Assembly (NCBI GenBank): GCA_964543385.1
Contig: CAZIYE010000001.1
Coordinates: forward strand, 215,868-279,867
DNA from: an uncultured Candidatus Saccharibacteria bacterium
Lineage (GTDB): Bacteria; Patescibacteriota; UBA1384; XYA2-FULL-43-10; 1-14-0-10-43-13
Reading direction: 5' to 3'
Length of the DNA: 64,000 bases
The translations under genes and the position numbers were made by a program. Below are positions 5,101 to 62,578 of this stretch, one piece after another (position 1 is the first letter of the stretch; the number at the start of each line of letters is the position of its first letter). The notes below the pieces were generated by a model. That model had not been told where the DNA came from, did no database searches, and worked only from the letters and a program-made list of their open reading frames with translations.

Positions 5101-5558
5101 TCAACGGTTTGATTAGCAACATACAATGCCTGATTTAATGCACTATGAAGTTCAATATCGGTTTGACTATGCCCTTCATTGGTCCAAACTTTGCCATTAT
5201 TATCAACCCAGGCTCCCTTAACCTCTTTGCCGTTTATAGTCTGAGCTTGATTTGGATTCCACTTATAACCAAGCTTGGCTTGAGAAACAGTACTGATAGC
5301 ATCAACTGTACTCATGGCTTGAAGCTTGTAGCTCCTACTTGCATCGGCTTTAGGAGCAGTAGTAGTCTGTATCGCAGGCAAAGCAGAGCTATCTGCACTA
5401 ATCAAGTCCGTAAAGAAAAATACAAATCCACAAACCAAAAACAGAATCGTTGATATAAGTAATATCAAGGCCTTTTTATCAATAGAGCTTTTACTTTTCA
5501 TCTCCCTCCAAAACATTATTACAATTACATATAAAATTACATTAGAAACAATCGCCAA
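2148..5558 (-). CDS. Large membrane-anchored surface protein: N-terminal TM, three tandem ~60-aa repeats, Gly-rich low-complexity region, C-terminal DUF4214-like domain
   Basis: 1136-aa ORF; N-terminal hydrophobic helix; three repeats of LGYKWNP..GAWV..W...LHSALNQ..Y.AN; GxG-rich stretch; C-terminal FAVYKEMLGRNPSTTEFMNWYF resembling DUF4214 consensus. Confidence 0.7.
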   Translation of the reverse strand: MAIVSNVILYVIVIMFWREMKSKSSIDKKALILLISTILFLVCGFVFFFTDLISADSSALPAIQTTTAPKADASRSYKLQAMSTVDAISTVSQAKLGYKWNPNQAQTINGKEVKGAWVDNNGKVWTNEGHSQTDIELHSALNQALYVANQTVDSPVKSNALELDKQIKAANAIMVKPATVAASANNKVVIAAQVVSDISDGYLGYIWNPDKVWTLNGKQVTGAWVNDSGDTWDRAKHTPAENLLHDQCNETLAAYNQAKTNPAAVNHADALNKQLQITLAKPDIQAIKVKSDKELIQQISEDYLGYKWDGTVWSKDGVSWASSNHTEAETILHNALNQPMYEANLIDKDQKLAEPFARNMEIVMDLLAKPEIAALKRTDSTNTVGPNAGVPETPASVAEKDLNIFARVWDGVANPLLTAWNFLTNTIAANEKDLSADQTAQIDDSARAQADAMKTLIATASATGADKYFSLETIIFLNDNSKAIAEDISKNNGYCVGSCASLMAAAMRPNNIDDQRAITSYLSTIPFNLDAMKSTVAGIQSVSKGNADTIKTLEFAEYVSNMIESNDILKTSYRTGVSMNTATGHMEYVTSIKKKVACAGGAQSDGCFESIGYIAFDPFTQKYTANVPVEFAGQKISLVSDRNGNVYADLNKLDGNAYISLGQDGKYFEMTSIQVARDGSVGGSFKAFGQLFSYNANTKSFQIPLPLDKLLPNSAKNILGEKIMSGAGSLMIDTRGVVSGSVDLSKFDVKTVNVLDGQGKQVFDKVLVTGADGKAVIDPATGEEQTKEVARTKEITTGGNLGMAFDSKGNLAMNYAYNDSSGNSMGGISIGLNGSVSGSVNVGQLVGLGNIGVGFDKNGITGASLPIGSLAGVGVSLSIGKDGGLGIGGFVPVGPIPIPLSIGQNAKGGFKLAGPGFSVSLGGNDKRPLTPPTPKMISGTQNYDMSEVYYAHSLKKLLKTIRVYQIPPVKLTPDQQKARSAKIFAVYKEMLGRNPSTTEFMNWYFWSGHQPYTLIGSQTPEQMLAVMGDVMKTTIQGKWYGSVQKEYRFINGEEYNCVKRYTNLSDAFYNMCPRPKDIMTSDPFTTVAESGKTTKVDPSLQSFFDAILKSADIPSDITTQVKSTVPSTPAATTQAN

Positions 5559-9053: not shown

Positions 9054-9848
9054 ATGAGAAAATATTTTCAGTATTTCGTCACTGTTCTCAAGGTTAATAC
9101 AGCATACAAAGCTGACTATTTTTTGAGTTTAATTTTAGATGCTGTGTTTTTCTTCATCTCATTTGCGCTCTGGAAGGCAATATTTCAGGAAGGTAATATC
9201 CAAACAATTGATACTTATTCATTAAGAGATACTGTTACTTACTTTTTTATAACCGCAATTCTTTTTCGACTCGATGTCTCCGGCTCCATGTACATGGGCA
9301 GCATGATTTGGAATGGATCTTTTACAAATGATTTAATTAAACCATGGAGAGTAACAGTTGTCACAATAATGGATGTCCTTGCTGAAAAATTTTTTACTAT
9401 TCTGATGTTCATACCAGTCGCCATCCTAATATTTTTATCAGCTTATCAATACATTATTTTGCCAGAAATGCCAAACCTGCTAATGTTTTGTGTCTCTGTC
9501 ATTTTGGCTTTTTTTATGATGATAACCTTCAATTTGGTTATTCACGCTCTCACATTTCGTTTTGGTGACCAAGATGCTAATATTGAACTTTTTAACTACA
9601 TAGCAATTTTTTTAGCAGGTGCAACATTTCCCCTTTCCTTCTTGCCAGATCGCATCTTTGCAATTTTTAATGCTCTCCCCTTCAAAAATATATTCTTCAC
9701 TCCAATCCAAATTTTTCTAGGCAAAATGCCAATAGACAAAATCTATAGCAGCTGGATAGAAACAATTATCTGGACTATTATTTTCTACCTGATATATAAA
9801 ATTATTTATCAAAAAGGGTTAAAGCTTTACACAGGGACTGGGCGATGA
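9054..9848 (+). CDS. ABC-2 type transporter permease subunit
   Basis: 264 aa, 6 TM helices; 4-bp overlap with next permease and adjacent ABC ATPase. Confidence 0.6.
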   Translation: MRKYFQYFVTVLKVNTAYKADYFLSLILDAVFFFISFALWKAIFQEGNIQTIDTYSLRDTVTYFFITAILFRLDVSGSMYMGSMIWNGSFTNDLIKPWRVTVVTIMDVLAEKFFTILMFIPVAILIFLSAYQYIILPEMPNLLMFCVSVILAFFMMITFNLVIHALTFRFGDQDANIELFNYIAIFLAGATFPLSFLPDRIFAIFNALPFKNIFFTPIQIFLGKMPIDKIYSSWIETIIWTIIFYLIYKIIYQKGLKLYTGTGR

Positions 9849-10648
9849 TTCAACAAATAAAAAAATTTCTTAAAATCAATATGATCATTTTTCGAAATGC
9901 TTATATTAGAGATTCCAAAATACCTGGATTGGTCGCTACCAATATCATTATACAGCTCTTGGACATATCTATCTCCCTCATTTTTTTTGACATTGTTTTT
10001 GCCAACACCAAAACTCTGGCAGGTTGGAATCTCTACCAAGTCATATTTCTATACGCTTTTATTAAATTCATCGCCAGTCTACAAAGCGCATGGACAAAAA
10101 AGGGGTTGAAGTCTTTAGCAGTTGAATTAGTGAGGTTGGGCGATTATGACTTCTTCGCAACAAAGCCATTTGACTCAATGCTTCTGGTATCAATCAGCAA
10201 GCCAAGACTTTATTCTTTTATCGCCCTAATTTTTGAAGTAGGACTGATGATATATGCAGCGTCAAGATCCGGTATTAATATGGGGGCAGAAAATATTTTT
10301 TGGTTCTTATTTTTAACTATTTTCAGTATTACTCTTTTTTACTTCCTAAGCGTTATTACTGTTGTTCCAGCTTTCTGGACAACTAGGCTTTATTCACTCA
10401 CCGATTTTATGAACAGAGCAATTCAGTTCGCCAAATATCCAAGCGGAGTTTTTCCCAATCTGTTAAGGACACTGCTCTCGACAGCATTTCCTATTATTAT
10501 TGTCTCTTATTTTCCTGTCAGGACGCTCTTTTATCCACCCCAAATTAGCTATATTATATATATGGTGCTAATCACTTTTCTGTTCGGCTTTGTTGCTAGA
10601 AAGTTATGGAGATCAGGCGAAAAAAACTACGGTAGTGCCTCAAGTTAA
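9845..10648 (+). CDS. ABC-2 type transporter permease subunit (second)
   Basis: 267 aa polytopic membrane protein, operonic with ATPase. Confidence 0.6.
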   Translation: MIQQIKKFLKINMIIFRNAYIRDSKIPGLVATNIIIQLLDISISLIFFDIVFANTKTLAGWNLYQVIFLYAFIKFIASLQSAWTKKGLKSLAVELVRLGDYDFFATKPFDSMLLVSISKPRLYSFIALIFEVGLMIYAASRSGINMGAENIFWFLFLTIFSITLFYFLSVITVVPAFWTTRLYSLTDFMNRAIQFAKYPSGVFPNLLRTLLSTAFPIIIVSYFPVRTLFYPPQISYIIYMVLITFLFGFVARKLWRSGEKNYGSASS

Positions 10649-10657
10649 TTTAAAAAT

Positions 10658-11614
10658 ATGAATATTATATCTGCAAAAAATATCTTTAAGGGATTTACTA
10701 AATCAAGTTTTAACTGGAAAAATTTTCATTTTGATAAATCTGAGACTTTTGCAGTCAGTGATCTTAGTCTTGAAATTAAAGAAGGTGAATTTGTTGGATT
10801 CCTTGGACCAAACGGTGCCGGCAAAACCACTTTTCTAAAAATGCTCTCTGGTATCATTTACCCAACTTCCGGAGAAGCGCAAGTTTTGGGTTTCACACCG
10901 TGGGAACGTAACTTTGATTTCCTGCGTCAAATTGCTATTGTTATGGGCCAAAAAAATCAGCTTTGGTGGGATTTGCCAGCGATTGATTCGTATAAAATGC
11001 TGAAAGAAGTTTATGACATCGATGATAAGAGATTCAAACAGAATCTAGACTATATGGTTGATTCTCTTAACATGCGCGATCTTTTGACAAAGAGGCTTCG
11101 CAATATGTCTCTAGGAGAAAGGATGAAATGTGAGCTAGTCGCCTGTTTTCTTCATGATCCAAAGGTTATTTTTCTAGATGAACCGACTATTGGCTTGGAT
11201 GTTGTTTCTGGTCAAGCAATCAGAACATTTCTCAAAAATATAAACAAAGAAAAGAAATGTACCATTATTTTGACAAGTCATTATATGGCCGACGTTGATG
11301 AACTATGTAAACGTGTTGTTATTATAAATAAGGGTAAAAAAATTTACGACGGTGATCTGGAAAAATTAAAGACCAAATACGCCCCTGAGAAAAAAATACA
11401 GATCTTTCTCTCCTGCCTTGAAGATAGAGAAAAATTTGCCCGCATACCTATCAAACAGAAAAAAATTTGGGATGGAAATGGCATTATAACCGTACCGAAA
11501 AATAAACTTGGAGATGTAGTGACACAAGTATTTGATATATTCCCAGCCGAAAATATCACGATCTCCGATCCAGATACGGAAGAAGTTATCAGCAAGATAT
11601 TTTTAGAAAAGTAA
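10658..11614 (+). CDS. ABC transporter ATP-binding protein
   Basis: Walker A GPNGAGKTT, signature LSLGERMK, Walker B IFLDEPTIGLD. Confidence 0.85.
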   Translation: MNIISAKNIFKGFTKSSFNWKNFHFDKSETFAVSDLSLEIKEGEFVGFLGPNGAGKTTFLKMLSGIIYPTSGEAQVLGFTPWERNFDFLRQIAIVMGQKNQLWWDLPAIDSYKMLKEVYDIDDKRFKQNLDYMVDSLNMRDLLTKRLRNMSLGERMKCELVACFLHDPKVIFLDEPTIGLDVVSGQAIRTFLKNINKEKKCTIILTSHYMADVDELCKRVVIINKGKKIYDGDLEKLKTKYAPEKKIQIFLSCLEDREKFARIPIKQKKIWDGNGIITVPKNKLGDVVTQVFDIFPAENITISDPDTEEVISKIFLEK

Positions 11615-11684
11615 TAGTTTTAACTAAAGCACATTACATTCTTAACAAATTACATTTTTTATAGTAAGGTTTTTATGTAATTAT

Positions 11685-11760
11685 CGGGGTGTAGCGTAGT
11701 TGGTAGCGCGCATGGCTGGGGGTCATGAGGTCGTGGGTTCGAGTCCCGCCACCCCGACCA
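11685..11760 (+). tRNA. tRNA-Pro (anticodon GGG)
   Basis: acceptor cggggtg/caccccg (C1-G72), anticodon loop ctGGGgg, T-loop ttcgagt, encoded CCA. Confidence 0.85.
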
Positions 11761-11824
11761 ATAAAAATATCATTTTAATAAATAGTATTTGACCATTAGC
11801 CCTATTTTCGTCTAAAATAATAAC

Positions 11825-13012
11825 ATGAAAATAATATTAGCAACTGAAAGTTTTCTCCCAAACGTCTCCGGCGTTGCCGTCGCCACTGAAAATCTTGCGA
11901 ACAATCTAACTGCTGCCGGACACGAAGTCTACGTCTTTTGTCCTAGCCGAAATTTCGAATCTCACGTAGATAAGGAATTCAAAAAATACCAAGTTGTCCG
12001 ATTGAAATCTATAATAAATCCTTTCCGCAAGGGATTTAGAATCACTGCAGCATCAAACAAAGAAATGCTAGATAGGGTTAGTGAAATTGCTCCCGATCTT
12101 ATACATCTTCAGGATCCAGCAGCCATTGGCACAGGTTTGCGTGACGCCGGTAGAAAACTTGGAATACCGATAGTTATCACCAACCATTTCAGTCTGGAGT
12201 ATGCTTTGTCCTACGTTCGTTTCCTAGGAATAATGATTCCGATTGCAAAAAATACGCTAGTAAAATATTTGGTTAATTTCTACAATAAATGTGATTATGT
12301 AGTAACCCCTACTGAGACATTCGCAAAGCAAGTAAGAAGCTGGGGCGTCACTTCTCCGGTCAAGGCAGTATCTAATGGTATTCTTTTTGACCGTTTCCAA
12401 AAGAAATTCACTAAGCAGGATATTGAAAAATTTCGCGAGAAATATCACCTTCCAAATAACCCTTCGGTATTATACCTCGGTAGAGTCGATAAAGATAAAA
12501 GTATTGACGTTTTAGTAAATGCTGCAAAACAGGTTACCGATAAAGTTAATGCTCACTTCATTATTGCCGGATCTGGCGACGAAATTGATAATATTATAGC
12601 GATGACAGAAAATCTTGGGATTCGTAATTTCTTTACATTTCTAGGAAGAATAGATCACGAGAGTGATGACTTTCTTGAAATTTATAAGTCATCTGCCCTA
12701 TTTGCGATTCCCTCTACTATAGAAACACAAAGCCTGGTCACCCTAGAAGCAATGTCGTGCAGTCTCCCAGTAGTTGCGGCAGATGCAAATGCATTGCCGG
12801 AGCTCGTTAAGACAAAGCTAAATGGCTATCTATTTACACCGTCAGACCATAAAGAGATGGCTGACCATATTATAAAAATAATTCAGAATAAAAAATTAGC
12901 CCAGAAAATGGGACAAAATTCTGCTCATATCGCTTCCGACCATGAAATGTCGCTAGCCTTCGGACATATGCTTGATTTATATAACAATGCTATTTTGGAA
13001 AAAAGAAACTGA
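11825..13012 (+). CDS. Glycosyltransferase family 4 (GT-B, glycos_transf_1)
   Basis: 395 aa; C-terminal EAMSCSLPVVAADANALPELV (E-x7-E motif). Confidence 0.8.
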   Translation: MKIILATESFLPNVSGVAVATENLANNLTAAGHEVYVFCPSRNFESHVDKEFKKYQVVRLKSIINPFRKGFRITAASNKEMLDRVSEIAPDLIHLQDPAAIGTGLRDAGRKLGIPIVITNHFSLEYALSYVRFLGIMIPIAKNTLVKYLVNFYNKCDYVVTPTETFAKQVRSWGVTSPVKAVSNGILFDRFQKKFTKQDIEKFREKYHLPNNPSVLYLGRVDKDKSIDVLVNAAKQVTDKVNAHFIIAGSGDEIDNIIAMTENLGIRNFFTFLGRIDHESDDFLEIYKSSALFAIPSTIETQSLVTLEAMSCSLPVVAADANALPELVKTKLNGYLFTPSDHKEMADHIIKIIQNKKLAQKMGQNSAHIASDHEMSLAFGHMLDLYNNAILEKRN

Positions 13013-23514: not shown

Positions 23515-24210
23515 CTAATTAAGTGCAGCTAAATCTTGATCAGCCTCTTCAAATTGGCTGGCGAGTCTCTTTTGGTAGCTCAGAAATTGCGACTCTTGGA
23601 GATTTTGACTCAAGTTCACGAAACCATTTGATGGCAATTGTTCTGTGTCACTTCTTAGGATATAGACCTTAATTCCCTTTTTTATAAGCATATTTATTTG
23701 CTCTCTAACATCCAAGGCGAGATCATTATAATTTTTTATAAACAATACTTGCTGCAGTTGATGAGGCGTTTCGGCTCTAGAGAATGCTTCTCTAAGTGAA
23801 TTACTAGCAAAAAAATTATCAGGATCATCGCCCACTAATGAATGGTGTATAGTTTTGATCGTTTCTCTAAGTGCCTTAGGATCACCATCCAAAAGATTTA
23901 AGGAAAATTGGTTAGATTTAAAAGGCTCAATCCCCGTACCGACCTCCATCTCCTCATTCTTCGGAATCTTCGACTCAAGGATAGAACGAATAGTCTCAAA
24001 TTCAACCTTATCTATAAGCACACCCTTATTTGATATGGATAGACTATCTAAAATAGAATTAATAATTCTGTCAACGACATCATCATTAGTATTCTTCTGA
24101 TCTAAAACTTTTAGCAATACCTCCTCTACCTGTTCTTCGGTGACGGTCATAAGCATATCCTTTAATGACATATGCTCATTTATAGATGTCTCGTAATGCA
24201 TTTGGTCCAT
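23515..24210 (-). CDS. Hypothetical acidic protein
   Basis: 231-aa ORF operonic with radA. Confidence 0.5.
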   Translation of the reverse strand: MDQMHYETSINEHMSLKDMLMTVTEEQVEEVLLKVLDQKNTNDDVVDRIINSILDSLSISNKGVLIDKVEFETIRSILESKIPKNEEMEVGTGIEPFKSNQFSLNLLDGDPKALRETIKTIHHSLVGDDPDNFFASNSLREAFSRAETPHQLQQVLFIKNYNDLALDVREQINMLIKKGIKVYILRSDTEQLPSNGFVNLSQNLQESQFLSYQKRLASQFEEADQDLAALN

Positions 24211-24220
24211 TCTATAAGTC

Positions 24221-25747
24221 TTATTTTATTATTTCTTTCAATTCATCCAATTGCTTTTGCACTGCATCAATTTTTGCTTTGATCTCAGCACTCTTATCAA
24301 CGGTAGCTGCGGGCTCATTAATCTTGATCTCAGGCACCGCACTGCCTGTCACAACTGCTCCATTTTTAATAAATGTGTCCAGAGATGCTGCATTGTCGAA
24401 ACCAGCGACCTTATTTGTCTTAGCATCAAATAATACCGTCTTCGCAATACCTGCGGCATCATTCGGTATTATCGAGAGCAACCAATAAAGATCTTTGCCA
24501 ATTTTGAGCGGTCTTGGCTCTGCTAGATTAAATGCATCCCAGCTATAAGTTGGAAACTCTCTTTTAATATAATCAGCTGCCGCAACAGGACCCGTTAACT
24601 GTGAATTTTGATCATACTCAACAATTTCTCTTTTGCCCGTCGTTGCATCAAAGATAAAAATCTTATAGACACCGTATGACCTGCCATATGGCTCAGCTAC
24701 GACTAACTGTTTGAATCCTTCGTTTGTGGACACATGAAATATTTTCTCACTCCCCGGTAAGGCGACTGTCTCTGTTTGATTTTTATGCAAAAACCACTTG
24801 TTTAGAAGACCACCTTTGTAAGCATATGAATCAGTATAATAATTCACCAGCTCTTTTGGATACAACCGATTATTCTTAAGGAAAGAAATGTTTTGTGCTT
24901 CTTCTGGTGTGTAATCAGATATATAGCCGCCAGCATCAACTAGCATCACACCTGCCCAGTAAGGTACTCGAAAAGGAAAACCCTTGTAGCCGATATAAGG
25001 CACAGCCGTTAGCCAATTGCCACTATCATCTTTCAAATACACTGGTTCTGATGAATAATCAACGCCATATTTCTTTAATTTCAGTTGATAATATAAATTA
25101 TCAAAAATTCCGATCCCCTCTGAGTATTTAAATTCCTTGTCCTCAATGGCCACTTTTTTATCGATAGTATCAACTTCAACAGTCACAAAACCATTCAATT
25201 TGTTAGTAAAATATAGTATTCCGCCATCTGGCAATCTAGGGAAAACTCTCTTTAATTTGCCATCAACCATGACGATTTGCGAATCACCCAACATCTCCTG
25301 AGGATTTTGAAAAGTATCAGCAGCATAACGCTTTGCGACCTGTTTTGGCGTCAGTCTAATTGGTTCGAAATTTGGCAAATCGACTTTTGCCTCATAGGTA
25401 ACTTGTTTCGCAGTCAAAAGATATCTGATCTCGCTCTCAAAATTAAGAGCTACAAAAATAAGAATTAAAAAGACTATATAGCCAGAAATAATCAACGGTG
25501 AAACTTGATTTGATGCCTTGAATGTATAGTTTTGCATTCCCGTAGGTACCATAGTAATTTTGCCAAACTTCTTTAAAAGAAGAGCGACGCCGGCGATCAA
25601 TGCAACGATCAAAATACCTTTGAGAGGGCTAACCACAAAAAGCATATAGAAACCGTGAAAAAATGGCCTAAATAGCCAAATAAGTAGGACCAAAATAACA
25701 ATCCAAATAAGAGAACGAGGATTTATCTTTTTCATAAAATCACCCAA
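24221..25747 (-). CDS. Hypothetical membrane protein with large extracytoplasmic domain and C-terminal coiled coil
   Basis: 508 aa; 3-4 N-terminal TM helices. Confidence 0.55.
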   Translation of the reverse strand: MGDFMKKINPRSLIWIVILVLLIWLFRPFFHGFYMLFVVSPLKGILIVALIAGVALLLKKFGKITMVPTGMQNYTFKASNQVSPLIISGYIVFLILIFVALNFESEIRYLLTAKQVTYEAKVDLPNFEPIRLTPKQVAKRYAADTFQNPQEMLGDSQIVMVDGKLKRVFPRLPDGGILYFTNKLNGFVTVEVDTIDKKVAIEDKEFKYSEGIGIFDNLYYQLKLKKYGVDYSSEPVYLKDDSGNWLTAVPYIGYKGFPFRVPYWAGVMLVDAGGYISDYTPEEAQNISFLKNNRLYPKELVNYYTDSYAYKGGLLNKWFLHKNQTETVALPGSEKIFHVSTNEGFKQLVVAEPYGRSYGVYKIFIFDATTGKREIVEYDQNSQLTGPVAAADYIKREFPTYSWDAFNLAEPRPLKIGKDLYWLLSIIPNDAAGIAKTVLFDAKTNKVAGFDNAASLDTFIKNGAVVTGSAVPEIKINEPAATVDKSAEIKAKIDAVQKQLDELKEIIK

Positions 25748-48442: not shown

Positions 48443-48471
48443 AAAGACCCTGCAAATGTGGGGTCTTTTTT
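48443..48471 (-). terminator. Bidirectional terminator aagaccc-tgcaaatgt-ggggtctt with flanking A/T runs
   Basis: seen directly, downstream of GT2 gene. Confidence 0.5.
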
Positions 48472-48491
48472 ATAATCGGCAAGCTCTCTGC

Positions 48492-49508
48492 CTAGTATCT
48501 TCCTACCTTGTTCCAGGCAAATCTTTGATGCTTCTTGATAGTTGCGGCGACCCTAAAAAGTGCATAAAAATATGAAATAATATTCATGATGTAAAATACT
48601 GGAAATAACAGGATATACGGTATTATCCACCACTTTTTTTCAATAATTGAGATCAAAAAGGCACATACGTAGATTGTCGCAAACATCCCAGAAACGATAT
48701 TTAAAATTATGGAAGGATAAAATATCGCAAGTGTCAATGAAGCTATCCAGATAAAATTATCCAGAAATAGGAAATTCAGTTCGAAATTATATTTAGAATT
48801 GATCTTGTGAAGTTTATGTTGAAAATAGTTCTGCCATGTACCCGTATTCCAGCGCAGAACTTGTCTCCAATAGTCTTTTATTGTGAGCGGGTCTTGAGTT
48901 ACTACAATTGCCTTTGATACATAAACCACTTCCCCCAACTTTCTCTGATGAATCTGAATAGTGAGATCAAAGTCCTCGGTCAAAGTTCCATTTTTTAAAT
49001 CTAGTTTTTTTAGTACTTTGCTGCTGTACATTGAGGCGCAACCAGGGGCAACGGTAATTACTCTGACAAAGTTCTGAGCATTTTTGTATACCCTATGAGA
49101 AAGCCCATACTCAAAGGTTCTAAATGCACTGATAAGACCTTTTTTGCGAGACTTAACAGTCCCCACTATCAATGCAGGATTTTCAGCAAGATGAACTTTT
49201 ATTTCCTCTAAAAAATTTGGGTCAAGCTCGCTATCTGCATCGGAAAATAGCACATATTTGTATCGTTTGATCAGTTGATACTTGTCAATAATTTTCTCCT
49301 GAGCGAGAGCCTTGCCGTGGTTTTTGCCTAAATCCAAAACAAATACTTCTTCCTTCCTTGCTAAACTCACTGTTCTATCCGTTGAACCATCGCTTACTAC
49401 ATAGATGTCCTTCTTATTAAAAATATTTTTTAAAGAACGCAAAGAAGAGGAAATAACCTTTTCCTCATTAAGGGCGGGTATAACCACGCAAAATTCTCTT
49501 TTGGTCAT
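48492..49508 (-). CDS. Processive family-2 glycosyltransferase (cellulose/chitin/PNAG-synthase-like) with C-terminal TM helices
   Basis: DGSTD, DADSE (DxD), GTLTEDFDLT (TED) and QVLRW (QxxRW) motifs; 3-4 C-terminal TM helices. Confidence 0.75.
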   Translation of the reverse strand: MTKREFCVVIPALNEEKVISSSLRSLKNIFNKKDIYVVSDGSTDRTVSLARKEEVFVLDLGKNHGKALAQEKIIDKYQLIKRYKYVLFSDADSELDPNFLEEIKVHLAENPALIVGTVKSRKKGLISAFRTFEYGLSHRVYKNAQNFVRVITVAPGCASMYSSKVLKKLDLKNGTLTEDFDLTIQIHQRKLGEVVYVSKAIVVTQDPLTIKDYWRQVLRWNTGTWQNYFQHKLHKINSKYNFELNFLFLDNFIWIASLTLAIFYPSIILNIVSGMFATIYVCAFLISIIEKKWWIIPYILLFPVFYIMNIISYFYALFRVAATIKKHQRFAWNKVGRY

Positions 49509-49621
49509 TATTTATTTCTCAACTTTTTAATTAATTTCGATGGTACAAAAATCACTCCCGCAAAAAAAGTAACCGCGAGGTGTCCCAAAAAACTTGGGCC
49601 AAATGCAAATGGAAAGTACAT
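49508..49621 (-). CDS. 37-aa hydrophobic single-TM peptide translationally coupled (TAATG overlap) to GT2 synthase
   Basis: AAGGAG SD 5 nt upstream of ATG; MYFPFAFGPSFLGHLAVTFFAGVIFVPSKLIKKLRNK; stop overlaps GT2 ATG. Confidence 0.4.
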   Translation of the reverse strand: MYFPFAFGPSFLGHLAVTFFAGVIFVPSKLIKKLRNK

Positions 49622-49836
49622 GTTGCTCCTTCTTTATTACTACCTTATTTACTTGTAACGATTAAGAACTATCTTACTTTTACTGAATGGTTTTTTTAGT
49701 AGTAAATGTCCTAATCAAGCAATACTTGCAATAAGCTAAAGTTATATAAAATCACAATTACAAAATCTGGTTTTAAATGTAAAACAATAGCATAGGTAAA
49801 AATCCATACAATTAAATAACAAGCAAGGAAAGGAAA

Positions 49837-52482
49837 ATGAACAAAACGATTTTTAAATTTATTGTCATCTTCTCTGTTTTAACCTCTGGACTAGTACCGG
49901 CTCCATATTCGAGCAAGGCTAAGGCTGTAGAAAACAATTTGGTATCCAACCCATCGGTTGAACAAATTGACAGCACCACCAATATCCCTGTCGGTTGGAA
50001 GAATGGTAATTGGGGTAGTAACATAACGTCCTACTCGGTTAACTCCATCGGATATAACAGCGATAGAAGCCTTAGAGTAGATATCACCAATTATCAAGAT
50101 GGTGATGCCAAATGGTATTTTGATAAGGTTACCGTTGATCCAACAAAAAAATATATATTCTCTGATTACTATCAATCTAATATATATAATGAAGTAGTTG
50201 CGGAACTAACAGATCTAAATAACAATGTTAGTTACCAATGGATGGGCGGTTTACAGGCGAGCACAGACTGGACAAGATCATCGTTTGAATTCGATGTACC
50301 AGCCGGAACAGCCTACCTAACTATTTATCATTTAATTAATTCCAATGGATTTCTAACCACTGACAGTTACACAATAAATGAGGTGGTCAATGAAAATGCC
50401 ACAATTACTGACAACGTACCAAATAATAGTTTAGAACAAATAAATTATCAGGATAATTCCCCTCTCTCTTGGAATAAGAATAGTTGGGGCACAAACACAG
50501 CTTCATTTGAATATTTAAACACCGGTCATACCGGTAGTAAATCAGCCAAAACTATAATATCTGACTATACTAGTGGTGATGCAAAGTGGTACTTTACACC
50601 TCAACAAATTGTCGGGGGAAAGACATATCAGTTTGCCGACTATTATCAATCCAGCATACCTTCACAGGTGATTCTAATGATCACCAAAAGTGATGGTAGC
50701 GTTGTATATCAGGAGCTAAAAAGCACCGAGCCAGCATCTGACTGGAAAGAATATAGTGATAATTTTAATATAGCTACCGATGTCTCAAACATATCGGTAT
50801 TGCATGTTATTTCTGCATCAGGATTTCTCATAACCGATGACTACTCTATTAAGGAAGTAATCCCTGAAAACGTTATCTATACCGATAATGTTCCAAATGC
50901 TGGGGCAGAGCAGGTTTCAGCAAATAGCAACTTACCCCTAGCATGGAATAGCAACAGTTGGGGCACTAATACGGCTACTTTCGAATACCTAGATACTGGC
51001 TATAGTGGTGCAAAATCTCTCAAAACTAGCATCTCTGGCTACACAGATGGTGATGCTAAATGGTATTTTAATAAGATAGCCCTAAATCCTGCTAGATATA
51101 CATTCTCTGATTATTATAAATCAGATGTGGCCTCTGATATCGTTGCCGAATTTGAAGATCAAAATGGCAATATCAGTTATCAATGGCTCGGGACATTTCC
51201 GTTATCAAGTGAATGGGCCGAGGCCTCTGTTAGCTTCGACCTGCCTAGCACAGCCAAATACTTTGCAATATTTCATCTTATTAGTCAAAATGGTTTCTTA
51301 ATAACTGATGATTATTCGATCAAAAAATCAGAAGATCGATCTCCTGATTTAACTATCCCAAATGGCAATGTCGAGGAAGTTTCCACTACAGATATCCACC
51401 TTCCATCTGGGTGGTCGACAGACAAATGGGGTACAAATACAGCTTCATTTGAGTATTTAAACACCGGATACAATAGTAACCGATCATTAAAAACCACTAT
51501 TTCCGCTTACACGAGAGGTGACGCTAAATGGTATTTCAATCACCAAAATGTTATACCGGGAACAACTTACCAATTTTCAAATTATTACCAGTCCGACATT
51601 CCCTCACAAGTAACAGTCGAGATAATAAAAGAAGATGGTAACTATGACTATCTGAACTTAAAGGTTGCCGAAGCATCGGCTACATGGCAGAAATACACCG
51701 ATACCTTCTCGATACCACTTGGGGTTAGTCAAATAACGATATTTCACTTTATCTCAGCAGTCGGTTTTCTTGTTACAGATAATTATTCGATAAATTCTTA
51801 CCAGCCAACCAGTTTTAGCAGACCAATTGTAAGCTTAACTTTTGACGATGGCTGGGAGGATAATGTCACTACTGCTTTGCCGGTTATGACTCAATATGGG
51901 TTCAGATCAACTCAATATTATGCAACCACTTTTATCAATAATAATCAGGCTGAGGCTGCCATCAAGATTGGCCAATTTGTCCTTGCGGGGCATGAAATTG
52001 GATCACATAGTATTACACATCCGGATCTGACAACTTTAAGCGAGGCTGATTTAATTGCAGAGATAGCAAGTTCCAAGGCGACTCTAGAAGGAATTGCTGG
52101 GTTAGGCAATATCAAGGCATTTGCAACACCATTTGGTGCCTATAATGCAAATGTAGTTACGAAAATACTGGAATATTATGAATCCCATCGTAGTACTGAC
52201 GTTGGCCTTAATACTAAAGATACCGCCAATATTGATAACATCCGGGTTAAGAATATGCTCTATAGCACCACTCTTGCAGAATATCAGTCATGGATCGACC
52301 AAGCTGTCCGTGATAATGCCTGGCTTGTCCTCGTTTACCATCGTGTTGCTGATAATCCTGGCGCTTATGATAGCTACATCTCGGATTTCGCCGCTCAAAT
52401 GCAGTATGTTAACAATTCAGGGATAACCGTTTTGCCTGTCAGCGAAGCCTTAACCGAAATCACAACACAAATCACGCTATAA
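49837..52482 (+). CDS. Secreted protein with four tandem ~150-aa CBM-like beta-sandwich modules and C-terminal CE4 (NodB) polysaccharide deacetylase domain
   Basis: Signal peptide; four repeats sharing WGTNTASFEYLNTGY...GDAKWYF...YQFS.YYQS...GFL.TDDYSI; CE4 motifs SLTFDDGWEDN, GHEIGSHSITH, ATPFGAYN; AAGGAAAGGAAA SD. Confidence 0.8.
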   Translation: MNKTIFKFIVIFSVLTSGLVPAPYSSKAKAVENNLVSNPSVEQIDSTTNIPVGWKNGNWGSNITSYSVNSIGYNSDRSLRVDITNYQDGDAKWYFDKVTVDPTKKYIFSDYYQSNIYNEVVAELTDLNNNVSYQWMGGLQASTDWTRSSFEFDVPAGTAYLTIYHLINSNGFLTTDSYTINEVVNENATITDNVPNNSLEQINYQDNSPLSWNKNSWGTNTASFEYLNTGHTGSKSAKTIISDYTSGDAKWYFTPQQIVGGKTYQFADYYQSSIPSQVILMITKSDGSVVYQELKSTEPASDWKEYSDNFNIATDVSNISVLHVISASGFLITDDYSIKEVIPENVIYTDNVPNAGAEQVSANSNLPLAWNSNSWGTNTATFEYLDTGYSGAKSLKTSISGYTDGDAKWYFNKIALNPARYTFSDYYKSDVASDIVAEFEDQNGNISYQWLGTFPLSSEWAEASVSFDLPSTAKYFAIFHLISQNGFLITDDYSIKKSEDRSPDLTIPNGNVEEVSTTDIHLPSGWSTDKWGTNTASFEYLNTGYNSNRSLKTTISAYTRGDAKWYFNHQNVIPGTTYQFSNYYQSDIPSQVTVEIIKEDGNYDYLNLKVAEASATWQKYTDTFSIPLGVSQITIFHFISAVGFLVTDNYSINSYQPTSFSRPIVSLTFDDGWEDNVTTALPVMTQYGFRSTQYYATTFINNNQAEAAIKIGQFVLAGHEIGSHSITHPDLTTLSEADLIAEIASSKATLEGIAGLGNIKAFATPFGAYNANVVTKILEYYESHRSTDVGLNTKDTANIDNIRVKNMLYSTTLAEYQSWIDQAVRDNAWLVLVYHRVADNPGAYDSYISDFAAQMQYVNNSGITVLPVSEALTEITTQITL

Positions 52483-53337: not shown

Positions 53338-54093
53338 CTACTGATTGCGCCGCTGTAATATTTCTTCAGCTTTTTTTAGTTGCTCAGGATTATTTATACC
53401 GAGACCCTCACCAATCTCAGAGACAGGAATACATAAGACTTTTTTGTTTTGATTTGCAGCAATTTTTATCATGTCGGTTAGGTAATATTCCCCTTGAGCA
53501 TTATTGGTGCTCAATTTATCATAATTACCCCAAAACCAATCAGCATCAAAGATATAAAAGCCAGGATTACACTCCTCGATATCTAGTTGTTCCTCACTGC
53601 AATCTTTTTGCTCAACAATATCAACTACATGATTGCTTTCATCCTTAATAATTCGCCCAAAAGCCCAAAATCGAGGATTATTAAAAACTACCGAAAGCAT
53701 AGCTATTGTAGGCTTCTCCTTTTCATGGAGATCAATCAGCCTCCTAACAGTTTCCGGTTTATACAATGGATTGTCGCCATAGAAGACTATTATAGATTCT
53801 GCTTTGCCTTTAAGCACACTCCTTGCTTGGGCTGCTGCATGGCCAGTACCAAGTTGTTGTTCTTGCACTGCGTACTCAACTTCGTCGCCAAAATATTCTT
53901 CAATAAGCTCTTTTCTATATCCCACAACCAAAACAACCTTTTTTATGCCAGCATCTTTTATTAATTTGACGCTATGATATATCACTGGCTTTCCAGCCGC
54001 CTCAAACATAACTTTTGGAATTGGCGAGGCTACACCCTCATTCATTCTAGTCCCCTTGCCCGCAGCAAGTATTACAGCAGCATATTTCTCCAT
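53338..54093 (-). CDS. Sugar-1-phosphate nucleotidyltransferase; GlmU N-terminal (GlcNAc-1-P uridyltransferase) domain-like, lacking LbetaH acetyltransferase domain
   Basis: AVILAAGKGTRM and QQLGTGHAAAQA motifs as in GlmU; 251 aa. Confidence 0.7.
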   Translation of the reverse strand: MEKYAAVILAAGKGTRMNEGVASPIPKVMFEAAGKPVIYHSVKLIKDAGIKKVVLVVGYRKELIEEYFGDEVEYAVQEQQLGTGHAAAQARSVLKGKAESIIVFYGDNPLYKPETVRRLIDLHEKEKPTIAMLSVVFNNPRFWAFGRIIKDESNHVVDIVEQKDCSEEQLDIEECNPGFYIFDADWFWGNYDKLSTNNAQGEYYLTDMIKIAANQNKKVLCIPVSEIGEGLGINNPEQLKKAEEILQRRNQ

Positions 54094-54198
54094 GCGATGC
54101 TCCTTGATCTTAAAATTAGTTAACGATTCGAGTATAGCAAAAAATTATTATAAAACGAAAGGGCGAAACACCTATTTTAAAGGTGTTTCGCCGGCCAT

Positions 54199-54504
54199 TC
54201 ACCAAGCATAGTGAGCTCGTGTCCCCCTTTTTTTATCTTGTCCCTTGCAAATAGCAAAGAGCTGACGTGCAAACAGGATTTCGATAGTCGAAAAATCTGT
54301 AAGCTGTGCGACTAAATCCTCTTGGCAAGTCGCACCATGATTGATCAAATTGATCACCTGTTGGGCCTTTTCGCCCAATAGAACGATCTGACCAACCGCA
54401 TGAGGTCTTCTGGATTCTGGTAGCCCCATGATGGAAGCCACAAGATCAGCAGTTGCATTATCAAGCATCGATGCTTCCCCTTCTCTGCTATCTGGTTCGG
54501 ACAT
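54199..54504 (-). CDS. Hypothetical protein in GC-elevated patch
   Basis: 101-aa ORF; G+C clearly above flanks. Confidence 0.35.
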   Translation of the reverse strand: MSEPDSREGEASMLDNATADLVASIMGLPESRRPHAVGQIVLLGEKAQQVINLINHGATCQEDLVAQLTDFSTIEILFARQLFAICKGQDKKRGTRAHYAW

Positions 54505-54777
54505 AAAATGTCCCCCCTTTTGTTTGATATACTGAGATCCGATAGCTACCTATCCGATCTCTCCAGACAAACAAAAAACTGGCCCAAGCCAGCTATTTAT
54601 TCACTATTATTAATTTATAATTCGACTACACAAAAAATGCCGGCTTTACCAGATAATCAGATTGCCACCACCAATTTTGTGAATGATTAATCATTTCTAA
54701 TATATTAACATAAGCGATAATAATTTAAAAAGTGGGTGGGGCCGCTTATTAGGCGGCCACCCGGTCGAAAGAATGTC

Positions 54778-55041
54778 TTAATTGCATAATGCAATCCTCT
54801 GACATTCAAGATGATGGATTGGATAGTCCTTCATCAGAAAATAATAACGAGTTATCGCCTTGAGGCGCTCATTCAAGATGATGCCACACCGAGCAAATGC
54901 GTCAAAAGCATCACTTTCGCTTGATGCAGCAAGAACAACTGGGGGTAAGAATTCTTTGGCTAATGCCATTAACTCTTTGCCGCTAATAACCGACCTATCC
55001 TTGGAAGAACGATCAGGACGGCAGAAATAGCTACTCATCAC
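54778..55041 (-). CDS. Hypothetical protein in GC-elevated patch
   Basis: 87-aa ORF. Confidence 0.3.
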   Translation of the reverse strand: MMSSYFCRPDRSSKDRSVISGKELMALAKEFLPPVVLAASSESDAFDAFARCGIILNERLKAITRYYFLMKDYPIHHLECQRIALCN

Positions 55042-55497
55042 ACAGCTCCTTTGGGGTTTTTGGTATTATACAGCGACTTGCATAAGCAAATCGCCATAAA
55101 TAACAAAAAATCTGGCCTTTTGGCCAGCTTTGTTAAATTTTTTTTATAACTTTATGAACTTTTAATTAAAAATTGCTGGCCTTTGGTCAGATGTAAAGTA
55201 AAAGTAAAACCAGTTTTTAGTAGTAATAATATTCATCGATATAATCAATCTAGCAAATCATCATTTTGATGTCAATTAAACAGCTTGGGTGACGGGAGAG
55301 TGCTGTATACATGTTGCCAGCACTCTCCCCGACCTTACATTTGAATTGTCGCCGGATCCTTTAGGCACTTGCCCTTAGGATGATGGCGACGGCACTTGGG
55401 ACACCACACGGGGATGTCCACGCCATCAGATGGCGTTGAGGGGGGAATCCATGGTTGCCGCTTTCGCGGCATCTCAGAGGGGGTTGTCGGCATGATT

Positions 55498-55929
55498 TCA
55501 CTCCAACTGATAAGAGGTGTAGCCCACCTCGGCGATACGGCGGGGAACGACGTCCCACGAGTTGGGACAGACAGTGCACTGGTAATGACCATTGCTGGTC
55601 ATGATACCATTGTTCGCGCGACACTCAGTGCAGTACCTGTCGGTCAATCGGAACTTCTCACCATTTCCGATAGCATAGGCCGGGAAACGATGCCCGAAGA
55701 TGTTGGGGAATACCGTTCCTCCGAAGAGACGGACGTTGATGTGACCGTCACTGGTTTCTACGAAGGCGTCAGGGATGACCAGCATCCTGAGATGGCGATT
55801 GTGCATCCATGCATTAGTCATTACCAATTCCGGTATGTTAGGAAGACAGTCATTGAAACGCTCCCCAGAGCGAACGATGATCGAGCCGATCGGTTTGATA
55901 CGGCTCTTAGGGCGGTGACGATTCGGCAT
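55498..55929 (-). CDS. Hypothetical Cys-rich protein (CxxC...CxxC), possibly zinc-binding; coding frame uncertain in GC-rich segment
   Basis: 143-aa ORF with CTEC ... CTVC; several overlapping ORFs on both strands so frame assignment is tentative. Confidence 0.3.
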   Translation of the reverse strand: MPNRHRPKSRIKPIGSIIVRSGERFNDCLPNIPELVMTNAWMHNRHLRMLVIPDAFVETSDGHINVRLFGGTVFPNIFGHRFPAYAIGNGEKFRLTDRYCTECRANNGIMTSNGHYQCTVCPNSWDVVPRRIAEVGYTSYQLE

Positions 55930-56110
55930 AACAGGACTCCTTTGTCAGGGGATTTGACGAACAAATTCGTCTATATGAGGTATATAGCAAAATAAGCAAT
56001 AAATCAAGTTATGAGATAATTATTGCTTATGACAATTCTTTATCGAGTTCACTAAATTTATTACCTGCCAAAAATTGGTTTGAGATTATCTGTGTTACTT
56101 CCTTGCCAAA

Positions 56111-56470
56111 TCATTTAGGAATCTCAAAATTTCTCTTAGTATCCTCATTGTCAAAGACAACCTCAGCCAAGACAAGACCTTCTAATTTGCCATGAAATAT
56201 ATCGACACGAATCTCCGTAACTAGAGATGAGATATAATACCGAGTCTTCTCAAGTCTCTTTTTTGTCAAAGGCCAGATAAGATCGAATTCTTCTTTTGAT
56301 ATATTGATATTTTCATATTCACGAATCCCTTTATCAAAAGGAATTGGCATTGATTTCTTTGTAATTGAATATAGATTACCTTTTTGCAAATTCTTGTGGC
56401 TTCGCCACCAACACCAAAATAGCCCTATTCTATTTCTTCATGAGCACATTGATCCATGTTTTTTGGAGAT
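56111..56470 (-). pseudogene. Probable degraded CYTH-domain (triphosphate tunnel metalloenzyme) gene: intact C-terminal part, disrupted N-terminus
   Basis: 92-aa ORF (non-ATG start) ends ...VDIFHGKLEGLVLAEVVFDNEDTKRNFEIP like the CYTH C-terminus; upstream out-of-frame MDQCAHEEIE-stop resembles the CYTH EIERKF start. Confidence 0.35.
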
Positions 56471-56553
56471 TTTTTACTAAATAGGTTGCTTCAATTCTAA
56501 TCGTCTTCACTCCTTGTTCATATTCCGGTCATTAAATAAATTTGAAAATAAAA

Positions 56554-59409: not shown

Positions 59410-59531
<122 letters not shown>

Positions 59532-59725
59532 TAACTTACAAATTGGCTTTGTTTTGAAAGAATGCCTTTCAAATGGAGTAAGATTAAAGAGAATCTTACC
59601 CCCATTTGAAAATCAACATGAGCTCGATCCAGCATGCCAGCATCGCCCCTCATCCTTTCGCAAAGAAAGGATGAGCGAGTCGTGCCAACACAAAGGTATC
59701 TTAAACGCTCGACAATTACTGGAAT

Positions 59726-59747
59726 AATCCAGAAATTACTAGTCAAG
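59726..59747 (-). repeat. 3' arm of 22-bp perfect rRNA processing stem (pairs with 62658..62679)
   Basis: aatccagaaattactagtcaag is exact reverse complement of cttgactagtaatttctggatt. Confidence 0.7.
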
Positions 59748-59754
59748 AAAATAT

Positions 59755-62578
<2,824 letters not shown>

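Follow-up and report, generated by a model that had tools for sequence, protein, structure and literature searches.

A candidate minimal glycan synthase module with a 37-residue membrane micro-protein in an uncultured member of the Patescibacteria

We describe a probable extracellular glycan module encoded in a 64,000-nucleotide stretch of DNA (referred to throughout as the window; contig CAZIYE010000001.1, positions 215,868 to 279,867) from an uncultured Candidatus Saccharibacteria bacterium. It comprises a 338-residue glycosyltransferase of family 2 (GT2), a 37-residue membrane micro-protein whose gene overlaps that of the GT2, and a divergently transcribed protein in which four modules resembling carbohydrate-binding modules (CBMs) precede a domain of carbohydrate esterase family 4 (CE4). 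Considering the sequences, the structural models and the analogies with known systems together, we estimate a probability of roughly 0.6 that these genes constitute a Patescibacteria-specific minimal synthase-dependent extracellular glycan module. The arrangement follows known synthase-dependent logic, with a small membrane partner and an esterase for modification accompanying the synthase, joined in relatives by a hydrolase for trimming, and its parts list is unusually reduced; what is new is the micro-protein family, which is essentially unannotated, and a literature search returned no description of either the micro-protein or the module. Members of the Patescibacteria live in contact with other cells to which they attach, and their surface chemistry is almost uncharacterised; the combination of synthase, micro-protein and CBM-deacetylase provides a concrete candidate for an attachment or envelope glycan in this group.

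The three open reading frames (ORFs), together with a nucleotidyltransferase gene discussed further below, lie exactly where a preliminary description of this DNA had placed them. The features of the module are as follows.

48492..49508, minus strand: GT2 synthase, 338 aa (from the ORF list)
49508..49621, minus strand: micro-protein, 37 aa, MYFPFAFGPSFLGHLAVTFFAGVIFVPSKLIKKLRNK (from the ORF list, sequence read)
49631..49626, minus strand: Shine-Dalgarno sequence AAGGAG, 4 nt ahead of the micro-protein ATG (read from the sequence)
49622..49836, no strand: divergent intergenic region of 215 bp between the micro-protein/GT2 operon and the CE4 gene (from the ORF boundaries)
49837..52482, plus strand: CBM-CE4 protein ORF, 881 aa (from the ORF list)
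49837..49926, plus strand: signal-peptide-like N-terminus of the 881-aa protein, MNKTIFKFIVIFSVLTSGLVPAPYSSKAKA and then VENN (read from the translation)
49927..51780, plus strand: four tandem CBM_4_9-like modules of about 155 aa each (Pfam and comparison of the modules with one another)
51799..52482, plus strand: CE4/NodB deacetylase-esterase domain, aa 655-881 (Pfam Polysacc_deac_1)

Both promoters presumably sit in the 215-bp divergent region, within which a scan for the sigma-70 consensus gave zero sites.

Sequence and predicted structure both place the GT2 with the membrane-integrated synthases of the processive type, such as hyaluronan synthase (HAS), BcsA, chitin synthase and PgaC, and not with the dolichol-phosphate or undecaprenyl-phosphate sugar transferases. 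It matches the Pfam families Glycos_transf_2, Glyco_tranf_2_3 (71.6 bits) and Glyco_trans_2_3 (55.4 bits), and weakly Chitin_synth_2. The DxD, TED and QxxRW motifs on which the processive assignment was originally based are all present, with D40, D90xD92, T175/E178/D179 and Q216xxR219W220 invariant across 37 aligned homologs, as are W332 and R337 within a C-terminal WxKVxRY motif. An AlphaFold2 (AF2) model (pLDDT 91.4) consists of a cytosolic GT-A domain (aa 1-205), the QxxRW interface helix (210-230) and three transmembrane (TM) helices (239-263, 265-290 and 293-326), all C-terminal, with zero TM helices at the N-terminus, as had been proposed; a QxxRW-bearing interface helix followed by a TM domain is the layout of the processive GT2 class. 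A channel is expected to draw on four to eight TM helices of the synthase itself, against three here and a possible fourth from the micro-protein, which AF2 placed without confidence in a concatenation of the two proteins; judging from the model, channel formation by a GT2 with three TM helices is not self-evident. At 338 aa the protein is, to our knowledge, smaller than any processive GT2 characterised so far. There are at least 140 homologs, and about 70 of the 120 listed are at least 45% identical to it and 329-385 aa long, which argues that the short form is native.

The C-terminal W332-x-K-V-x-R337-Y motif (48492-48520, GT2 residues 329-338) has counterparts in Lactobacillales relatives, which carry WDHVSR and WNHVSR. 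It may be the gating-loop equivalent of the WGTR motif in HAS, chitin synthase and NodC, and the low pLDDT at residues 329-338 would fit a mobile loop.

It could be argued that the GT2 neither polymerises nor exports, and instead is a membrane GT2 of minimal cellulose-synthase-like fold whose product is either a lipid (such as diacylglycerol or a polyprenyl phosphate) extended by one or a few sugars, or short oligomers like those of NodC. We think this unlikely on three grounds. Firstly, in a profile search of the PDB the enzymes DPMS, GtrB, ArnC and PcManGT match only the N-terminal nucleotide-binding part of the GT2 (residues 4-114), whereas the TED-QxxRW-TM part matches only BcsA, HAS1 and chitin synthase. 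Secondly, a Foldseek search with the GT2 model ranks the Chlorella virus and Xenopus HAS proteins at the top (query-normalised TM-score 0.82), followed by chitin synthases and BcsA, with both HAS and BcsA above PcManGT. Thirdly, the conserved neighbours are proteins that act on extracellular polysaccharide (the CBM-CE4 protein, and lichenase-like hydrolases of families GH26 and GH16). The Pyrobaculum calidifontis enzyme PcManGT (PDB 6yv7) transfers mannose in N-glycan synthesis and is not a polymer exporter; its sequence similarity to the window GT2 covers residues 4-93 only, and the TED/QxxRW half of the GT2 has no detectable match to it. Neither profile search nor fold comparison thus groups the GT2 with the non-processive dolichol-phosphate transferases, which was the counter-case raised in the preliminary description.

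Among named families the closest to the GT2 is that of PgaC, and the relationship is a distant one. The best NCBIfam model is PgaC_IcaA (TIGR03937), at 82.9 bits against a curated cutoff of 422.3, so far under the cutoff that the GT2 is not an equivalog of the synthase of poly-N-acetylglucosamine (PNAG). It is 25% identical to Escherichia coli PgaC over GT2 residues 8-332 (hhalign probability 99.5%), and as the alignment starts at PgaC residue 79, the GT2 corresponds to PgaC minus its N-terminal TM helices. The Class I HAS proteins (Chlorella virus HAS and Xenopus HAS1) differ from it in sequence, with 15-16% identity, and in having six TM helices, two of them N-terminal, as opposed to three in the window GT2 plus the single helix of the micro-protein. 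Close homologs of the GT2 are labelled 'Patescibacteria group bacterium' and 'Candidatus Berkelbacteria'. The matches listed from a profile scan of genome contigs with the GT2 alignment are all distant (26-36% identity) and mostly from Acidobacteriota, and a scan of metagenome contigs with the single GT2 protein gave three weak, irrelevant matches only; orthologous loci were obtained through 12 exact-protein look-ups.

Comparison of these loci shows, at the level of sequence, that the 37-aa ORF is a real, conserved and selected protein that is almost never annotated. A homolog adjoins the GT2 gene in ten of the 12 loci examined, at GT2 identities down to 46% (the window, L084, L087, L091/92, L093/94, L095, L098, L099 and L100, together with P0124, which is paired with P0010), and the concern that the ORF might not be conserved in orthologous loci is thereby removed. 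Representative copies are listed below.

L084, next to the GT2 gene: micro-protein MYSPIIFGPSFLGHFVITIVGGIVFMPARLFRKIQKRK
L091/92, next to the GT2 gene: micro-protein beginning MYVLPAAGPGFLGH
L095 (Berkelbacteria), next to the GT2 gene: micro-protein beginning MYQLPSTGPSSAVH
L100, 4761-4880, minus strand, divergent from the GT2 gene: micro-protein beginning MYKIPATGPSFAVH, recorded as MYKIPATGPSFAVHLAIILASALAWPITQLGKIILSEEE

Five residues (M1, Y2, G8, P9 and H14) are invariant among six aligned sequences. All eight of the copies analysed have an uncharged N-terminal part, a hydrophobic core (19 residues with a Kyte-Doolittle value of 1.6 or more) and a tail with a net charge of +3 to +6; the window copy has one TM helix and a +5 tail, and the topology predicted from the sequence is N-out/C-in. 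The closest pairs show 10 differences at first, 5 at second and 15 at third codon positions, as expected of a protein-coding sequence on which selection acts. When both strands of 22 sequences were filtered for proteins of no more than 60 aa that start with MY and have a TM helix and a basic tail, a single unrelated match came back, and the ORF is conserved at the protein level where the orthologous GT2s are 46-68% identical, and is therefore more than a chance ORF. No family model in Pfam or NCBIfam matches it (a marginal score below cutoff is described below), and the family members called as genes number four in a library of 5.8 billion proteins and nine in one of 1.84 billion, all of 37-74 aa. 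The description of the ORF as unannotated is accurate but for one public assembly (L083) in which it is called. With about a dozen calls in a 15-billion-protein collection the family is nearly invisible to gene callers, and we note that obligatory subunits can be missed in this way.

The canonical AAGGAG Shine-Dalgarno sequence and the translational coupling to the GT2 were both correctly recognised earlier. In the window the TAA of the micro-protein shares its last A with the ATG of the GT2 (TAATG), and in all nine same-strand loci checked at the DNA level the end of the micro-protein ORF meets or overlaps the beginning of the GT2 ORF, by 0, 1, 4 or 8 nt. The recurrence of the arrangement in these nine loci, from independent assemblies and with differing overlaps, leads us to reject an artefact of sequencing or assembly. 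The L100 homolog is encoded on the strand opposite to the GT2, and its tail, like that of P0132, is partly acidic; neither coupling nor a basic tail is therefore universal.

The position of the ORF invites a simpler explanation, namely that it is a mere translational leader (an upstream ORF) or what is left of a synthase N-terminal TM helix that has split off. In favour of this, the ORF is immediately upstream of, and coupled to, a GT2 that has no strong Shine-Dalgarno sequence of its own, and PgaC has about 70 additional N-terminal residues with TM helices at the point where the GT2 starts. We nonetheless find this explanation very improbable, since it is the sequence pattern that is conserved and not the reading frame alone. 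The L100 copy, encoded opposite to its GT2, leads us to reject a pure leader ORF. A split-off TM helix is probably not the origin either: a profile search of 1.84 billion proteins contained no micro-protein fused to a GT2, the more distantly related GT2s of L001, L096 and P0080-P0120 also lack N-terminal TM helices, and the Lactobacillales GT2s described below have an N-terminal TM helix of their own in addition to a mini-protein. A fusion by frameshift or read-through is rejected as well, as the GT2 frame has a stop two codons upstream of its ATG.

In sequence, the micro-protein resembles a minimal protein of the sorting-signal type more closely than it does an analogue of PgaD. The consensus outside the window's clade is M-Y-x-L-P-x-[A/T]-G-P-S-F-x-x-H followed by a TM helix and, in most members, a basic tail, which matches the layout of a sortase sorting signal with the exception of the first three residues. 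LPSTG occurs once (L095), LPATG once (P0125), IPATG once (L100) and LPxAG about eight times. The window copy (MYFPFAFGPSF..., with FPFAFG at the motif site) and those of L084 and L087 have lost LPx[T/A]G. The sole NCBIfam match for the micro-proteins is TIGR01167 (LPXTG_anchor), which is marginal (E 0.08) and below cutoff; of the features of an LPXTG protein the window copy has the TM helix and basic tail only, without motif, signal peptide or passenger domain. No sortase was found in the window, nor in ten of the 11 other Patescibacteria loci, the exception being L101.

Small proteins of similar design are found beside related synthases in Lactobacillales. The best Firmicute relatives of the GT2 are plasmid-borne, that of Lactococcus pJM1E being 28.7% identical to the window GT2 and that of Lacticaseibacillus pLP5401 being 46.8% identical to the pJM1E protein. 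Each is preceded by a mini-protein.

L103:3432-3596: Lactococcus pJM1E mini-protein, 54 aa, MYKAGVAGVAGVAGGAMLPETGVAGDFLK-TM-KMFKSKAQ, annotated as hypothetical
L108:1633-1806: Lacticaseibacillus pLP5401 mini-protein, 57 aa, MYRQGIGVAGISAAGVGMLPQAGEAGDFLK-TM-RRKTTRE, annotated as hypothetical

Both have MY at the start, a stretch rich in G, A and V, then LPETG or LPQAG, a TM helix and a basic tail, and are encoded 8-15 nt upstream of the GT2 genes. After each GT2 gene follows one for a TIGR03766 'XrtG-associated' membrane protein (617 bits in pLP5401 against a cutoff of 500; 461, just under it, in pJM1E), with no XrtG gene present in either plasmid locus. In the canonical XrtG locus of pBV60 a Firmicu-CTERM sorting-signal protein, XrtG, a TIGR03111 GT2 and TIGR03766 occur together. 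The XrtG system thus resembles the window module in combining a PgaC-like GT2 with a protein that has a tripartite C-terminal sorting signal, and the plasmid variants place a 54-57-aa MY...LPx[T/A]G mini-protein in the sorting-signal position. It differs in that the window GT2 scores only 34 bits on TIGR03111 (cutoff 364) and shares 21% identity with one of the proteins in that family, and in that the window micro-protein has no recognisable sorting motif; with the canonical locus L109 for comparison, no XrtG-like or TIGR03766-like gene is called in the Patescibacteria loci. The plasmid and XrtG loci show that the pairing of a PgaC-like GT2 with a small protein bearing a sorting signal recurs in monoderm bacteria, and together with the resemblance of the micro-protein to a sorting signal they offer a lead on the role of sorting-signal proteins beside glycosyltransferases.

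These similarities suggest a different role for the micro-protein, in which it would be a minimal sorting-signal protein that primes or anchors the glycan: the short N-terminal part, with its conserved Met-Tyr, would be the starting point or the attachment site of the chain, which would emerge through the synthase. In lineages that have LPx[T/A]G a sortase would pass the glycan-peptide to the wall, and in the window lineage the motif would have decayed and the TM helix would serve as the anchor. The family consensus, the identity of the one NCBIfam model that responds, the two plasmid loci and the canonical XrtG loci all speak for such a role. We consider it improbable, however, for several reasons: the motif is missing from the window, L084 and L087 copies; the LPXTG_anchor scores are under cutoff and signal peptide and passenger domain are absent; sortases are lacking in nearly all of the loci; the L100 and P0132 tails are partly acidic; the active site of a GT2 is cytosolic whereas Tyr2 is predicted to be outside; and no precedent is known for a GT2 exopolysaccharide primed on a peptide. 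A broader version of the idea, which we regard as doubtful, is that the micro-protein and the 338-aa GT2 make up the smallest known two-component glycan synthase-translocon, with the micro-protein as a bare sorting-signal handle that primes or tethers the chain, so that the exopolysaccharide would be peptide-anchored to membrane or wall, by a principle common to the mini-LPXTG/GT2 loci of Lactobacillales and perhaps to XrtG.

Some GT2 neighbourhoods have other proteins in them. In L101, the one close locus without the micro-protein, a sortase gene and one for an N-methyl (pilin-like) protein lie between the GH26 and GT2 genes (L101:2867-4705). In the clade of GT2s with 33-37% identity, from Acidobacteriota and others, a secreted protein with a YWTGW motif is encoded after the GT2 (L001:7078-7887 and L096:6080-6514); it may be an outer-membrane partner in diderm bacteria.

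The third component, the 881-aa protein, had been described as a secreted fusion of four tandem CBM-like modules and a CE4 deacetylase, and most of this stands. The modules (aa 31-185, 186-340, 341-490 and 491-648) each contain GDAKW[YF]F and are 34-50% identical to each other, with modules 1-3 being 38-50% identical to module 4. CBM_4_9 (PF02018), a family whose modules bind beta-glucan or xylan, is the top Pfam match of each, at 20.4, 16.8, 20.7 and 34.9 bits respectively, and as the gathering score is 25.9 bits only module 4 exceeds it, modules 1-3 being below. The hydrophobic, signal-peptide-like N-terminus, as read from the sequence, is similar in all orthologs. The orthologs are 409-771 aa long and, from their lengths and motif counts, fit roughly one to three CBM modules where the window protein has four. 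Searching with the CBM module brought up nothing but short stand-alone modules that carry no annotation, and gave no hint as to the ligand.

The CE4 domain is clearly recognised by Polysacc_deac_1 (84.6 bits against a gathering score of 23.1). Motifs MT1 (TFDDG, 668), MT2 (HSITH, 724) and MT5 (VLVYH, 831) are conserved in the six full-length orthologs checked, and the catalytic Asp and His residues, whose absence on alignment had been named as a possible objection, are thus retained. The assertion that all catalytic motifs are present was overstated: MT3 is ATPFG (763), which aligns to FRPPYG of 2cc0 with Ala in place of the Arg, an Arg that is absent from all eight sequences checked, and MT4, DxxD(W/Y), is not recognisable. 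Among NCBIfam models the domain scores best on that of HfsH, a holdfast deacetylase (67 bits, cutoff 400), and its best sequence matches in the PDB are acetylxylan esterases, headed by that of Streptomyces lividans (2cc0, 7.9e-11).

The CBM-CE4 protein is encoded as the divergent neighbour of the micro-protein and GT2 genes in seven of the 12 loci (the window, L084, L087, L091, L093, L098 and L099), which span GT2 identities of 51-100%, and in L096, of the 37%-identity clade, the CE4 gene is 1 kb downstream of the GT2. We take the divergent arrangement in seven loci, together with a rearranged but nearby position in the 37%-identity clade, to argue for a functional link. The same observations count against the view that the CBM-CE4 protein is independent of the synthase, acts on polysaccharide of a host or of the environment (peptidoglycan of the host, chitin, or acetylated xylan or glucan) for attachment or feeding, and is adjacent because of shared regulation. 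This view is in keeping with the acetylxylan esterases as best PDB matches, with the fact that CBM_4_9 modules are typical of enzymes active on plant glycans, with the range of lengths from 409 to 881 aa, which suggests a variable number of modules as in surface or adhesion proteins, and with L095, L100 and L101, which have the GT2 without an adjacent CE4 gene. On balance we think it rather unlikely.

Further indications of the product come from hydrolase genes in the sister loci, at the following positions.

L091:6168-7397, L093:6207-7358, L095:6051-6797, L099:6093-7370 and L101:1573-2934: GH26
L096:8241-8903: GH16

The GH26 gene follows directly after that of the GT2 in L091, L093, L095 and L099, and is 3 kb away in L101. 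The encoded proteins have an N-terminal signal or TM segment, a linker rich in Ser, Thr and Pro, and a C-terminal TM anchor; the L099 protein, the only copy tested, matches the Clostridium thermocellum lichenase Lic26A at 1e-45. The PDB matches of the L096 GH16 are all 1,3-1,4-beta-glucanases. Two unrelated families of lichenase type beside the same synthase family, together with CBMs of the beta-glucan type, point to a mixed-linkage beta-glycan, while the CE4 partner, PgaC as the nearest named relative and HAS as the nearest fold favour an acetylated polymer of N-acetylhexosamine (HexNAc) type. Two kinds of polymer thus come into question, one PNAG- or chitin-like, containing HexNAc and partly deacetylated, and one resembling mixed-linkage beta-glucan, and we find the two equally plausible.

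The parallel originally drawn with IcaA-IcaD/IcaB and PgaC-PgaD/PgaB is partly supported: it holds for the logic of the architecture and does not, on this evidence, extend to PNAG chemistry. As in those systems, the GT2 has TED and QxxRW motifs, with PgaC its best named relative, the gene for a small membrane partner overlaps that of the synthase, and there is a CE4 deacetylase partner. The differences are that the N-terminal TM helices of PgaC are missing, that the CE4 domain is fused to four CBM_4_9 modules in place of a GH153 domain, and that the sister loci have lichenase-type hydrolases, which like the low PgaC_IcaA score (83 bits against 422) caution against assuming PNAG. The likening of the micro-protein to IcaD or PgaD is similarly apt in that it is conserved and coupled to the GT2, and departs from them in size, TM number and gene position: it has 37 aa and one TM helix and is encoded upstream, whereas PgaD has 137 aa (read from L104) and is encoded downstream. 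PgaD and IcaD have two TM helices each, and IcaD is about 100 aa long.

The operons for cellulose and mixed-linkage glucan (BcsA-BcsZ, BgsA, RiGT2) offer a second comparison, as they too combine a GT2 with a polymer-specific endo-hydrolase; the hydrolases of the sister loci are of lichenase type, and the CBMs of the window protein are of the type that binds beta-glucan. They differ from the window system, which has no BcsB, PilZ or c-di-GMP module, and they have no CE4 partner; BcsA, at about 730-890 aa and with eight TM helices, is also far from the 338 aa of the window GT2. The bacterial GT2 synthases of mixed-linkage glucan, BgsA and Romboutsia RiGT2 (PMC10374906), are BcsA-like and have c-di-GMP modules.

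These observations are consistent with a mechanism in which the GT2 would sit in the membrane through its three C-terminal helices, use UDP-sugar on the cytosolic face to elongate a beta-linked glycan and, as its motifs and fold suggest, extrude it across the membrane in the manner of the hyaluronan, cellulose, chitin and PNAG synthases. The micro-protein would be made in fixed proportion through translational coupling, insert N-out/C-in beside the synthase and act as an obligatory small subunit, which may complete or stabilise the very small TM part or tether the product. The secreted 881-aa enzyme would then dock on the polymer through its four CBM_4_9 modules and deacetylate it with the CE4 domain, so altering its charge or adhesiveness; in sister lineages it would be trimmed by the membrane-anchored lichenase-like GH26 (or by the GH16) encoded beside the synthase, much as cellulose is by BcsZ. 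Should the GT2 indeed polymerise and export with a single 37-aa helper, it would lend itself very well to studies of glycan translocation.

Several findings weigh against this proposal. The micro-protein is absent from L101 although the GT2 is present, and is absent also from the 37%-identity GT2 clade (L096 and L001). In the AF2 prediction for the micro-protein-GT2 concatenation the micro-protein is unstructured (pLDDT below 50), with no predicted contact to the synthase. The Arg of MT3 is missing from the CE4 domain, as described above, and we found no GH26 or GH16 homolog in the 64-kb window.

Next to the module lie, in one direction, the genes for GlyRS and the MraZ/dcw peptidoglycan cluster and, in the other, those for RecO and a uridylyltransferase.

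53338..54093, minus strand: GlmU-like sugar-1-phosphate uridylyltransferase, 251 aa, N-terminal domain only (NCBIfam)

This last gene had been noted as encoding a GlmU-like UDP-GlcNAc pyrophosphorylase domain; it is present as described, and gives no basis for choosing one polymer over another. The protein reaches at most 247.7 bits on GlmU models of NCBIfam (cutoff 450), over model positions 2-239 of 447, and the C-terminal left-handed beta-helix, the acetyltransferase domain of bifunctional GlmU, is not present in the 251-aa protein. The gene is syntenic in L084. It is peripheral to the module and probably of housekeeping type, and the genome also has a peptidoglycan dcw cluster.

Beyond this gene, a segment of about 2.4 kb (54100-56500) has a raised G+C content of 0.445, compared with about 0.37, and its ORFs, on both strands, are all short and overlap one another (101, 87, 199 and 143 aa); a Pfam search with the 101-aa ORF and an Rfam search with the whole segment gave no match, and it could be degraded DNA, foreign DNA or an unrecognised RNA. 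Large ORFs of 1136, 508 and 231 aa without any Pfam match lie at 2148-5558 and 23515-25747, both on the minus strand. Genes for 23S and 5S rRNA are at 59412-62574 (minus strand), with no 16S gene in the 1.4 kb left upstream, so that the 16S gene may lie past the end of the window or the rRNA operon may be unlinked. Finally, genes for two ABC-2 permeases, an ABC ATPase, tRNA-Pro and a GT4 glycosyltransferase follow in a row at 9054-13012 (plus strand), and these may constitute a second export module, of the ABC-transporter type, for a glycan or teichoic acid.

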